From the NCBI GenBank assembly GCA_029777855.1, contig JAKORL010000170.1, positions 1,169 to 65,168 of the forward strand: DNA of 64,000 nt. Direction: 5' to 3'. The stretch comes from Pseudomonadota bacterium (GTDB lineage Bacteria > Pseudomonadota > Gammaproteobacteria > JAIEPX01). A program made the position numbers and the translations under genes. Shown piece by piece: positions 31,214-33,466 of this stretch; positions within the stretch are counted from its first letter, which is position 1, and every line of letters begins with the position of its first letter. Below the pieces are notes generated by a model. That model searched no databases. It was not told where the DNA came from and saw only the letters and a program-made list of their open reading frames with translations.

Positions 31214-32236
31214 ATGATTATTTTAGGCATTGAAACATCCTGTGACGAAACAGGCGTAGCGCTTTATAGCGAAACTGCGGGTCTAATGGCGCACCGTATT
31301 TATAGTCAAATCGCTCTGCATGAAGAATTTGGTGGTGTAGTCCCAGAATTGGCCTCTCGTGATCAAATCCAAAAATTATTACCTCTGATTCTCCAGCTCC
31401 TCACCGACGAAGAAATTGCCTTGTCTGATCTTTCAGCAATTGCATACACCGCAGGGCCGGGGCTAGCGGGATCTCTTATGGTCGGTGCTTGTGTGGGGCG
31501 AAGTTTAGCTTATGCATTAAATATTCCCGCAATACCTGTAAATCATTTAGAAGCTCACTTGTTGGCACCCATGCTCGAAGAAAATCCCCCTACATTTCCA
31601 CACTTAGCGCTCTTAGTTTCTGGAGGACATTGCGCATTAATTCATGTCGAAAAATTAGGTGGCTATTTTATTATTGGCGAAACTCAGGACGACGCCGTTG
31701 GAGAAGCTTTTGATAAAACAGCTCGAATTCTAGGAATGCCTTATCCCGGTGGTCCTAAAATCGCTACATTAGCGCTGGAAGGCAATCCTACTCGATATCA
31801 TTTTCCACGACCAATGACGGATAGGCCTGGTTTAGATTTTAGTTTTAGTGGAATTAAAACCTTTGCCGCGAATTTAATTCATCAAGAAGGATCAGATCCC
31901 TCCACTTTTCCCGATATTGCCGCGAGTTTTCAACGCGCCATCATTGACACTTTGGTCATTAAATCTCGTCGTGCCATTCAACAAACGGGATTATCGACGC
32001 TAGTCGTTTCAGGTGGCGTCAGTGCCAATCAATTATTACGAGAAGAACTTGCACTCATGGCGCGAGATCTTAATATAGAGTTACATTTTCCCCGCTTGGA
32101 ATTTTGCACAGATAATGGAGCCATGGTGGCTTATGCAGGTTTTCAACACATTAAACAAGGCAAAAAAACAGATTTAACTATTAACATCGAACCGCGTTGG
32201 GGGATGGGGTCAAATCTAAGATTGATACATTCTTAG
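31214..32236 (+). CDS. tsaD: tRNA N6-adenosine threonylcarbamoyltransferase
   Basis: MIILGIETSCDETGVALY.., HLEAHLLAP, LLVSGGHC. The last ~10 codons (GMGSNLRLIHS-stop) are encoded by the palindromic element at 32206..32246. Confidence 0.93.
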   Translation: MIILGIETSCDETGVALYSETAGLMAHRIYSQIALHEEFGGVVPELASRDQIQKLLPLILQLLTDEEIALSDLSAIAYTAGPGLAGSLMVGACVGRSLAYALNIPAIPVNHLEAHLLAPMLEENPPTFPHLALLVSGGHCALIHVEKLGGYFIIGETQDDAVGEAFDKTARILGMPYPGGPKIATLALEGNPTRYHFPRPMTDRPGLDFSFSGIKTFAANLIHQEGSDPSTFPDIAASFQRAIIDTLVIKSRRAIQQTGLSTLVVSGGVSANQLLREELALMARDLNIELHFPRLEFCTDNGAMVAYAGFQHIKQGKKTDLTINIEPRWGMGSNLRLIHS

Positions 32237-32246
32237 ATTTGACCCC
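32206..32246. repeat. palindromic element, 16-bp arms, overlapping the tsaD 3' end
   Basis: GGGGTCAAATCTAAGA-TTGATACAT-TCTTAGATTTGACCCC. It probably also acts as a shared hairpin for convergent tsaD and the Rab-like gene. Confidence 0.85.
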
Positions 32247-32251
32247 ATTCA

Positions 32252-33235
32252 CTACCTGCCTTTCGTGGGAGTTGTACGAGCTTCAACCTCCGCTCTAGCA
32301 GCGTTCATCCCATTATTATAACTAGCTCTGTCTAAATGACTAATAATGTGCAATCTTGTTTCTAATCTATCTTTTAACCGATCCACATACTGGCCTTGCT
32401 TATTTTCTAGCTGGTTAAGCCTTTTCTTAGCATCATAGGTCAGTTCCTTGTAACACTCTTTAAGGACAGGTAAAATTTCAGGCCTTCTGTTGAGTTCAGA
32501 ATCGAGCTTGTAGATTGTTCCTTTATCCAATGCACGTTTGATTTGTCCTTTCATCAGAGAAAATTCTATCTTTTCTTTTACCTGCCTCAGGTTTTCGATA
32601 ATGTGCGTTTGTGCCCATTCAACTAATCCAGCTATGGGTCTTGATTCGTTAGCTTGAGCAACACCTTTTGGGACTGAGGCATTTAGAGTTACTGCTGGTG
32701 ACTTAGACATCTCTAAATCGAGTCGCTTTTGGTGCAAATCCTGTGCTATTTCCTGAAAAACCTCTTGAACACCTGCACCTGTCTTCGCAGAAGCTTCATA
32801 ATATTTTACTTCTCCGTTAACCCATTGAGTATCCGCAAATTCTTTCGCAGAAGTTTGATCTACATTTCTTCTCAGTACCTCATCGCTTTTCAGACCGACA
32901 AGAACGATTCTCGCCTGATCGGTACAATTCCTTTGAGCTTCCCCAATCCACTGCCTTACATGATCGTATGACCTTCTATCGGTAAGATCAAATGCCACTA
33001 TGATAACATTGGCATCTCTGTAACCTCTTGGTGGTGCTCCATCATAAACCTTCAGATTGACGTTTGTTCCATCCTCTACTGGCACAGGTCTCTGTTTGAA
33101 ATCTACGCCAATCGTGCTTACTTTTTGCTCAGTATAAATATCATCAGCAAATCTCAAAATAAGGTTAGTTTTTCCAATTCCAGCATTGCCCACTATGGCG
33201 ATATTATAGGTTTCTTCTGCCTTCTGAGTTGTCAT
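32252..33235 (-). CDS. eukaryotic Rab1-like small GTPase domain (degenerate switch II and NKxD) plus ~150-aa helical tail; effector candidate
   Basis: P-loop GNAGIGKT (33167..33190), [32 protein letters not shown] and EASAK. [9 protein letters not shown] (33020..33043) replaces WDTAGQERF.., and LKSD (32882..32893) replaces NKxD. AGAGGGG SD precedes the ATG. Confidence 0.75.
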   Translation of the reverse strand: [327 protein letters not shown]

Positions 33236-33304
33236 ACTCTATTACCCCTCTTTAAACTACTACTAATATAATTTTAGTACATAATCTGACTTTCTGCTTA
33301 GAAG

Positions 33305-33466
33305 GGGGAAGGGGTCAAATCTAAGATTGATACATTCTTAAATAGCAGAGGTAAGGTGTCAGATCTAATATTTAACCAGCAAGCACTGAGGTGGGATATG
33401 AGACTCAGTAATGATAGCTGGATTAATATTAGATCTGACACCTTCCCCAGATTTGCCCCCTTCCCC
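33305..33466. repeat. composite: 92-bp long-form element (33353..33444) apparently inserted into a copy of the 32206-type palindrome
   Basis: 33311..33340 is identical to the first 30 nt of the element at 32206. The matching right arm AGATTTGCCCCC appears only at 33449..33460, after the inner element AAGGTGTCAGATCTAATATT...AATATTAGATCTGACACCTT. Confidence 0.8.

Follow-up and report, generated by a model that had tools for sequence, protein, structure and literature searches.

Legionella genomes have been reported to encode 184 small GTPase-like proteins, 71 of which are Rab proteins (bioRxiv 10.1101/350777; PMC7542358). Such Rab-like proteins have been on record in Legionella since 2010, and the 16 Rab/Ras proteins that were tested are Dot/Icm substrates of unknown function (bioRxiv 10.1101/350777; PMC7542358; PMC2824747). 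According to a review, there is no evidence that the Rab-like proteins undergo a canonical GTP/GDP cycle (PMC7542358). The gene described here lies between tsaD and prpD in a stretch of 64,000 nucleotides (nt) from an uncultured gammaproteobacterium (assembly GCA_029777855.1, contig JAKORL010000170.1, positions 1,169 to 65,168); this whole stretch is hereafter called the window. The gene encodes a Rab1-like protein of 327 amino acids (aa), in which a G domain of eukaryotic type that has lost most of its switch II region is followed by a predicted helical domain. The class, Rab-like proteins of Legionella, is already known; what is new within it is a single sequence that lacks switch II.

Among the described members of this class, Llo3288, Llo1716 and Llo2329 resemble the window protein in that they carry a Rab domain of eukaryotic origin in Legionellales, and such proteins often have extra domains as well. 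Judged by their published descriptions, they keep the structural features of Rabs, whereas the window protein has no switch II, and its host belongs to none of the named Legionella species (GyrA ~70% identical). A second group with which it may be compared is that of the pseudoGTPases, exemplified by the pseudoGTPase domains of p190RhoGAP and by AAGAB (PMC5593906; PMC12490416). In these proteins, too, the GTPase fold is kept while catalytic or switch motifs have degenerated, and they presumably function as binding modules. The kinship with them is at superfamily level only, and the window protein differs in that its G1, G2 and G5 motifs are intact, so that nucleotide binding may persist. The gene and the parts of its product that bear on these comparisons are as follows.

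32252..33235, minus strand: Rab1-like open reading frame (ORF), 327 aa, stop codon at 32252-32254 (ORF list, Pfam Ras)
32708..33211, minus strand: G domain, residues 9-176 (HMMER and MAFFT alignments, AlphaFold2)
33008..33043, minus strand: switch II remnant, residues 65-76, which is 8 residues short of the Rab1 length and has DGAPP where Rab1 has DxxGQ (alignments, AlphaFold2, codons read directly)
32882..32893, minus strand: G4 motif, LKSD instead of NKxD, residues 115-118 (MAFFT alignment)
32255..32707, minus strand: C-terminal extension, residues 177-327 (AlphaFold2; no known family)

A preliminary description of this DNA, made from the letters alone, had read the ORF as a eukaryotic Rab rather than a bacterial GTPase. 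The motifs that it quoted, including EASAK, are all found in the 327-aa translation, and database comparisons bear the reading out. The Pfam family Ras (PF00071) matches residues 12-168 with an E-value of 1.3e-34, and the scores of the NCBIfam bacterial GTPase models are far under their cut-offs. Across all PDB sequences, the top matches are Rab1B and Rab1A (118-110 bits, E 4e-33 to 1e-30), followed by Ypt1 (94 bits), Rab35 (91), Sec4 (86), Rab18 (79) and Rab8 (78). The AlphaFold2 model of the full protein has a mean predicted local distance difference test score (pLDDT) of 81.8, mostly above 90 in the G domain, and its top 19 Foldseek matches are all Rab1 (E ~1e-17, target-normalised template modelling score 0.84-0.94). 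Sequence and model thus support a G domain of eukaryotic type that is nearest to Rab1 and not to any bacterial GTPase family.

Larger protein collections yielded relatives of the G domain only. When 1.84 billion representatives were searched exhaustively with phmmer, the only matches apart from the protein itself were to the G domain, at 26-46% identity, with 38-45% at most to eukaryotic Rabs, and a word-indexed search of 5.8 billion proteins placed it in a one-member cluster; it stands alone among some 15 billion proteins. The named top matches are all eukaryotic, from the rotifer Rotaria, the oomycete Aphanomyces and an Anaeramoeba 'Rab-1'. No Legionella protein occurs among these named best matches; the exhaustive library carries no names, and its lower ranks were not inspected. 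Plasmids (tblastn) and viral contigs scanned with the protein gave no matches, and neither the window nor the fetched loci of relatives contain a paralogue of the gene or of its tail. The gene has no introns, a purine-rich, Shine-Dalgarno-like GAGGGG motif stands upstream of its ATG, and its GC content (0.411) and its GC content at third codon positions (0.338) fall inside the range of the neighbouring genes. These comparisons show a gene that, by its protein sequence, descends from a eukaryotic Rab1 and that has resided in bacteria long enough to take on the host's composition and to diverge to ~40% identity.

The window protein shares with eukaryotic Rab1/Ypt1 the fold, the P-loop, the STIGVDF segment of switch I, a RabSF2-like LRFADDxYTE segment, the Lys and Asp of G4, and SAK. 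It differs from them, at ~40% identity, by a switch II that is 8 residues shorter and has neither DxxGQ nor helix alpha2, by LKSD, by the deletion or replacement of the positions of Rab1b S76 and Y77, and by a 150-aa helical domain in place of the Cys motif. The motifs around the lesion are well kept. The G1 P-loop (GNAGIGKT, residues 16-23) conforms to GxxxxGK[ST], and G2/switch I together with RabF1 is preserved as VSTIGVDF. In the MAFFT alignment, T41 to D45 fall in nearly invariant columns, and S149 of the G5 motif EASAK is in an invariant one. D65 is retained, as are K116 and D118 of G4, where the Asn has become Leu. The conservation is also unevenly distributed, since identity to one Rab1-type homologue amounts to 10 of 12 residues in alpha1/RabSF2 and 8 of 12 in switch I, compared with ~33% elsewhere.

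The shortening of switch II by about 8 residues and the absence of DxxGQ and its Gln had been noticed in the preliminary description, and HMMER, MAFFT and AlphaFold2 concur on both; alignment recovered no intact DxxGQ. HMMER and MAFFT, the latter with 27 homologues, place the 8-residue gap identically. In Rab1b numbering, D63 is kept, G66 and the catalytic Q67 are both replaced by Pro, R69-S76 are deleted, and Y77, the residue that carries AMP in PDB 3nkv, aligns with Gly. The G3 DxxGQ motif and helix alpha2 (RabF2-F4) that mark a functional Rab are thus missing. The AlphaFold2 model shows strand 58-65, a 3-residue turn and strand 77-83 in this region (pLDDT 87-92), with helix alpha2 absent. 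The switch II span has canonical length in 189 of 225 related Rab domains, and among the 225 a comparably short span is found only in a few degenerate repeats of multi-Rab proteins. With the Gly of DxxG, the catalytic Gln and alpha2 gone, canonical GTP hydrolysis and a GTP-dependent switch II surface would be precluded. Guanine nucleotide may still be held, given that the P-loop, the Mg/switch I Thr, the guanine-specificity Lys and Asp and SAK are kept. Loss of catalytic motifs within a retained G-domain fold fits the pseudoGTPase class as far as sequence and model can tell.

Classic dominant-negative alleles of Rab and Ras proteins are of the N-to-I type at the asparagine of NKxD. The preliminary description was right to read this motif as LKSD and to note that the lost Asn is the position altered in these alleles; here, too, the new residue is hydrophobic. 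LKSD is not a clear dominant-negative signature, since Leu is found there in 11 of the 225 related Rab-like domains (the window protein counted), next to Asn in 169 and Thr in 32, and a natural variant need not behave like a laboratory allele. Inheritance of LKSD from a particular eukaryotic donor lineage was considered and rejected, Rabs with LKSD being 39-41% identical to the query as compared with 44% for canonical Rab1.

The absence of a Cys prenylation motif and the presence of a helical tail of ~150 aa, both pointed out before, are confirmed by the end of the sequence and by AlphaFold2 models. The protein ends in ...TTPTKGR without CC, CXC or a similar motif, whereas most aligned eukaryotic homologues terminate in CC or CXC. 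In the models, residues 178-200 form a disordered linker and residues 201-321 three long helices. Pfam and NCBIfam have no family for the tail, the PDB contains no matching sequence, and the best Foldseek match of the separately modelled tail has an E-value of 5.9. In the exhaustive phmmer search, moreover, the stretches that scored best in the first 150 matches did not include the tail. Scored by hand, the C-terminal residues fit two of the published criteria for Dot/Icm signals (PMC2824747), with small residues at 4 of the 7 positions from -8 to -2 and polar residues at 8 of the 13 positions from -13 to -1.

The position of the gene between convergent tsaD and prpD, given in the preliminary description, agrees with the ORF list and with Pfam. 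The Rab1-like ORF runs in the same direction as prpD and ispG and converges on tsaD, whose stop codon lies 15 nt from it (32236 to 32252). The features of the junction are the following.

31214..32236, plus strand: tsaD, left flank (Pfam TsaD 1e-93)
32199..32250: left direct repeat, being copy 1 of hairpin element A, immediately on the 3' side of tsaD as well as of the Rab1-like ORF (repeat search, folding)
32203..33456: inserted segment of 1,254 nt, as compared with 17 nt in relative L109 (pairwise junction alignment)
33304..33466: hairpin element A, copy 2 (right direct repeat 33304-33343), split by palindrome B (repeat search, folding)
33466..34890, minus strand: prpD, right flank, upstream of the Rab1-like ORF (Pfam MmgE_PrpD N and C domains)

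Relatives were ranked by TsaD identity, and L109 is the closest one that shows both flanks. Between the window and L109 the junction blocks are 94% and 99% identical, and the nucleotide identities of tsaD and prpD are 93% and 97%. The closest strain of all, L108 (TsaD 98%; SRR27900775), is uninformative on the junction, its contig stopping inside the repeat. The states of the junction in the other relatives are listed below.

L109, TsaD 96%: tsaD and prpD abutting with an 11-nt overlap; no Rab gene
L111 (metagenome-assembled genome (MAG) from NCBI), TsaD 88%: 118-nt spacer with another palindrome, then prpD-ispG; no Rab gene
L113/L114, TsaD 88%: tsaD followed by an ORF on the opposite strand that exceeds 1,900 codons (L113:3354-9068)
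L115/L116, TsaD 82%: 149-nt spacer; no Rab gene
L117/L118, TsaD 77%: 4.8 kb at the junction (L117:8997-13792; L118:6820-11615)

The Rab gene is thus absent from the closest relatives in which the junction can be seen, and the empty junctions of L109, L111 and L115/L116 identify the gene as part of an insertion of ~1.25 kb. The junction varies in state even among L108, L109 and L111. A recent gain of the Rab1-like gene in the window's lineage is the most parsimonious reading of this distribution. In L117/L118, the cargo at the same place comprises two Fic-domain fragments, a 468-aa unknown protein, a 228-aa LRR protein and a 442-aa PhyH-like protein, and by gene content the tsaD/prpD junction looks like a hot spot for accessory, effector-type genes.

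The gene is bracketed by two copies of a palindromic element in the same orientation, as the preliminary description had stated: an exact 30-mer occurs at 32206 and 33311, within a direct repeat of 40 nt (32199-32238 and 33304-33343, 95% identical). Copy 1 of this element A is a complete 21+21 hairpin (-33.6 kcal/mol, z -9.7), and it encodes the last ~11 codons of tsaD (32204-32236), so that TsaD ends in …WGMGSNLRLIHS before the stop. TsaD C-termini differ among the relatives according to the content of the junction, that of L109 being …WGISSDLTPSPKA. Copy 2 is the same hairpin, interrupted by palindrome B (~33350-33447), and the nested fold of the two has an energy of -79.4 kcal/mol (z -9.4). 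The right arm of copy 2, AGATTTGCCCCCTTCCCC, directly adjoins the stop codon of prpD and corresponds to the solo arm present at the empty site of L109.

The element had been presented as a flank of this one gene; it proves to be a member of a dispersed family of intergenic hairpins. A 12-nt terminal motif, GG[GT]GTCA[AG]ATCT, is found in 12 arms at 7 intergenic sites of the 64-kb window, where a 13-nt core has 11 arm matches compared with 0.48 expected by chance. The fold z-scores of the palindrome elements range from -6.5 to -17, and the family also occurs at other positions in relatives. Further members in the window are these.

19808..19873: palindrome family member, intergenic, fold -55 kcal/mol
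24560..24680: palindrome family member, intergenic, fold -89.7 kcal/mol; the Logan contig L081 breaks inside it
34930..35002: palindrome family member between prpD and ispG, fold -24.8 kcal/mol

Elements of a comparable kind have been described in Coxiella burnetii, where small MITE/REP-like elements such as QMITE2 lie in 3' untranslated or intergenic regions and sometimes extend ORFs (PMC5896051). The family in the window resembles QMITE2 and repetitive extragenic palindromic (REP) elements in consisting of short stable hairpins with terminal inverted repeats, present in many copies in intergenic regions and at the 3' ends of genes, where they sometimes supply the last codons of an ORF, and variable between strains. 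It differs from them by its GG[GT]GTCA[AG]ATCT termini, by having no GTAG tag and no identified target-site duplication, and in that two of its copies bracket a protein-coding gene. Nested hairpins are seen at 33350-33447 of the window, at L108:2218-2310 and at L111:4160-4270, with differing interiors and common GG[GT]GTCAGATCT termini. This combination suggests, from sequence comparison, a family of elements that may target each other's loops or a common site. No clear target-site duplication was seen at the element ends, and the ORFs of the window that were scanned with Pfam included no gene for a transposase, a RAYT or an integrase. An integron cassette was rejected on account of this lack of an integrase and of an attC GTTRRRY core, the element ends being GGGGTCAAATCT; that other copies follow housekeeping genes, in both orientations, also counts against it. 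A dif/Xer-type site (cf. PMC9765430) was set aside, the element being multi-copy and much longer than dif.

The preliminary description had proposed a cassette-like acquisition. Insertion together with flanking elements is upheld by the empty sites of the relatives, whereas the term cassette is better replaced by a hot spot with repeat-mediated insertion. If one copy of the element arrived on incoming DNA, a single crossover with the chromosomal copy would produce the order element-gene-element with the elements in direct orientation. We infer such an event at the repeat because this is the pattern that the locus displays.

The host can be placed by GyrA, which is 94-96% identical to MAG and read-archive assemblies and 68-70% identical to that of many Legionella species, the nearest named taxa. 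By this measure, it is an uncultured lineage of Legionellales near but outside the named Legionella species. The gene content of the window is that of an ordinary bacterial chromosome, with gyrA, tsaD, prpBCD, ispG, minCD and others. Positions 24641-33335 are reproduced in a second public assembly (Logan, SRR15686344) over 8,695 nt with 0 mismatches, including the linkage between tsaD and the Rab gene, and both ends of that Logan contig fall inside repeat copies. The matching second assembly and the host-like composition make contamination or chimerism very unlikely.

The explanation to which we give a probability of about one in two is that a G domain derived from eukaryotic Rab1 has been joined to a novel helical C-terminal domain, and that the product is a non-cycling Rab1 look-alike, a putative pseudoGTPase, delivered into a host cell. 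By analogy with the 16 Rab/Ras-domain proteins of Legionella, it would enter a protist as an effector and act there as a Rab1 look-alike that does not cycle. The best-conserved surface, alpha1/RabSF2 together with switch I, would be the likely binding face for a host partner of Rab1, and the helical tail would stand in for prenylation in targeting or in partner binding. As a hypothesis, the nucleotide-state-locked decoy of the preliminary description is a reasonable reading of the motifs. A more elaborate version, which combines sequence, model and analogy, is put forward tentatively. The protein would be a secreted, switchless Rab1 pseudoGTPase that keeps nucleotide and the alpha1/switch I face and that binds and titrates, or relocalises, a host Rab1 partner. 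It would be blind to GTPase-activating proteins (GAPs), to extraction of the GDP dissociation inhibitor type and to modifications directed at switch II, and would be targeted by its novel helical domain. The dispersed hairpins would provide landing pads for recombination, by which effector genes are loaded into the tsaD/prpD hot spot of this lineage.

Several observations weigh against the delivered look-alike. Many Rab1 partners also require switch II, so that the deletion may abolish binding rather than lock it, and the host lies outside Legionella proper, which makes reasoning from AnkX and DrrA of L. pneumophila conjecture. LKSD is a natural minority state among the related domains and by itself weak evidence of a defect or of a nucleotide-free state. 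With regard to secretion, the C terminus lacks the hydrophobic residue or Pro at -3/-4 that is the third compositional feature of Dot/Icm signals, and the 64-kb window contains no dot/icm genes. No recognisable effector domain and no domain for binding lipids, phosphoinositides or partners was found in the tail with Pfam, NCBIfam, PDB or Foldseek. A promoter scan gave 5 sites compared with 3.4 expected, not above chance; one promoter-like site at 33362-33334 (minus strand), within the repeat, is not significant. The same scan for promoters and terminators found no intrinsic terminator. Lastly, neither protein search returned an ortholog, as a result of which purifying selection is not measurable and the protein could be decaying.

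The main rival follows from this last point, namely that the gene is a remnant of a former Rab-like effector gene that has lost its switch and is becoming a pseudogene without function. The protein is indeed a singleton, with no ortholog even in relatives whose TsaD is 96-98% identical, its G3 motif is destroyed and its G4 motif altered, and the gene is an accessory one, confined to this strain and located at a hot spot. That genes do decay in this genome is indicated by an in-frame stop in the ABC-F gene nearby, described below. The ORF of 327 codons is intact, however, the deletion is in frame and the AlphaFold2 fold is confident. Neutral decay would moreover not selectively spare the P-loop, the switch I Thr, K116/D118 and SAK, nor leave alpha1/switch I 75% identical to Rab1. 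On balance, we regard loss of function as doubtful.

The lost motifs might also have been compensated, in which case the protein would be a working GTPase with non-canonical catalysis; another part of the protein, the tail or a host partner would then supply the catalytic residues, as happens in other atypical GTPases. There is a precedent in LegA15, a Legionella effector GTPase whose catalytic mechanism is unlike that of eukaryotic small GTPases (PMC9757750), and G1, G2, G5 and the Lys and Asp of G4 are intact in the window protein. The replacement of the DxxG Gly by Pro and the loss of the whole of alpha2 nonetheless abolish gamma-phosphate sensing and leave a catalytic residue or GAP finger without its usual platform, and this makes a working enzyme unlikely.

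A third possibility is a regulator that stays in the cytoplasm and acts inside the bacterium, in analogy with Ras-like polarity GTPases such as MglA. Ras-superfamily GTPases are known in bacteria, and the delivery assumed for the non-cycling look-alike rests on analogy. A bacterial regulator is nevertheless highly improbable, as the nearest proteins by sequence and by fold are eukaryotic Rab1 and not bacterial families, the Rab-specific IGVDF and the RabSF2-like LRFADD are kept, and the gene is restricted to this strain and occupies a hot spot at which Fic and LRR genes are found elsewhere. An artefact, in the form of eukaryotic contamination or a chimera of protist DNA with a bacterial contig, has a negligible chance: repeats, at which short-read assembly breaks, do flank the gene, but the tsaD stop lies 15 nt away on contiguous sequence, the second assembly matches without mismatch, the composition is that of the host, and an identity of 38-45% to any eukaryotic Rab would be extraordinary for the genuine Rab1 of a contaminating protist.

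Apart from the Rab1-like gene and the hairpins, several features of the window were recorded. An ABC-F gene (ABC_tran/ABC_tran_Xtn/ABC_tran/C-terminal domain; 40247-42031, minus strand) is split into two ORFs by an in-frame TGA at 41063-41065. L115 has an unbroken orthologue of 597 aa, with which it can be aligned in a single frame (78% identity); the TGA is either a nonsense mutation or a sequencing error. Between ispG and this gene, the window has a CAP-domain protein (36811-37332), a 366-aa unknown and a glycosyltransferase (36301-40246), whereas in L115 (10708-13949) ABC-F directly follows ispG, which makes this a second variable segment; a short copy of the repeat motif lies within it at 37340-37351. 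The prpD gene is ~7 kb from the other methylcitrate genes (42036-45704: a prpC-like citrate synthase, a prpB-like phosphoenolpyruvate mutase/isocitrate lyase and an AMP-binding ligase), as it also is in L115. The gap between minC and minD (46675-47271, ~600 nt) is unusually long and contains no ORF of at least 120 aa. No Rfam families and no tRNA genes were found in the window, and without tRNA genes the locus is not a tRNA-linked island.

Five large ORFs (5257-14724, 14805-19796, 21214-23562, 26796-31181 and 58387-60528, for products of 3155, 1663, 782, 1461 and 713 aa) match neither a Pfam nor an NCBIfam family significantly; the product of 3155 aa gives a weak match to DUF3638 and nothing else. 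All five are candidate effectors. The 1461-aa protein is encoded upstream of tsaD, a position that is conserved in the relatives (1465-1480 aa), and by eye its C terminus resembles Sel1-type repeats. A metagenome scan with this protein gave no matches, and one with TsaD gave relatives at no more than 62% identity only. A scan of genome contigs with PrpD likewise yielded no close relative, the best among the matches listed being 61% identical.

For the family of Rab mimics, a natural derivative of Rab1 that has no switch II and otherwise intact nucleotide motifs argues that at least some of these proteins are static binding modules, and it singles out the alpha1/switch I face as the surface of interest. 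For the genomes that carry them, the clean comparison of an empty with a filled site reveals the turnover of accessory, effector-type genes at one junction in an uncultured lineage of Legionellales, alongside a dispersed hairpin repeat.

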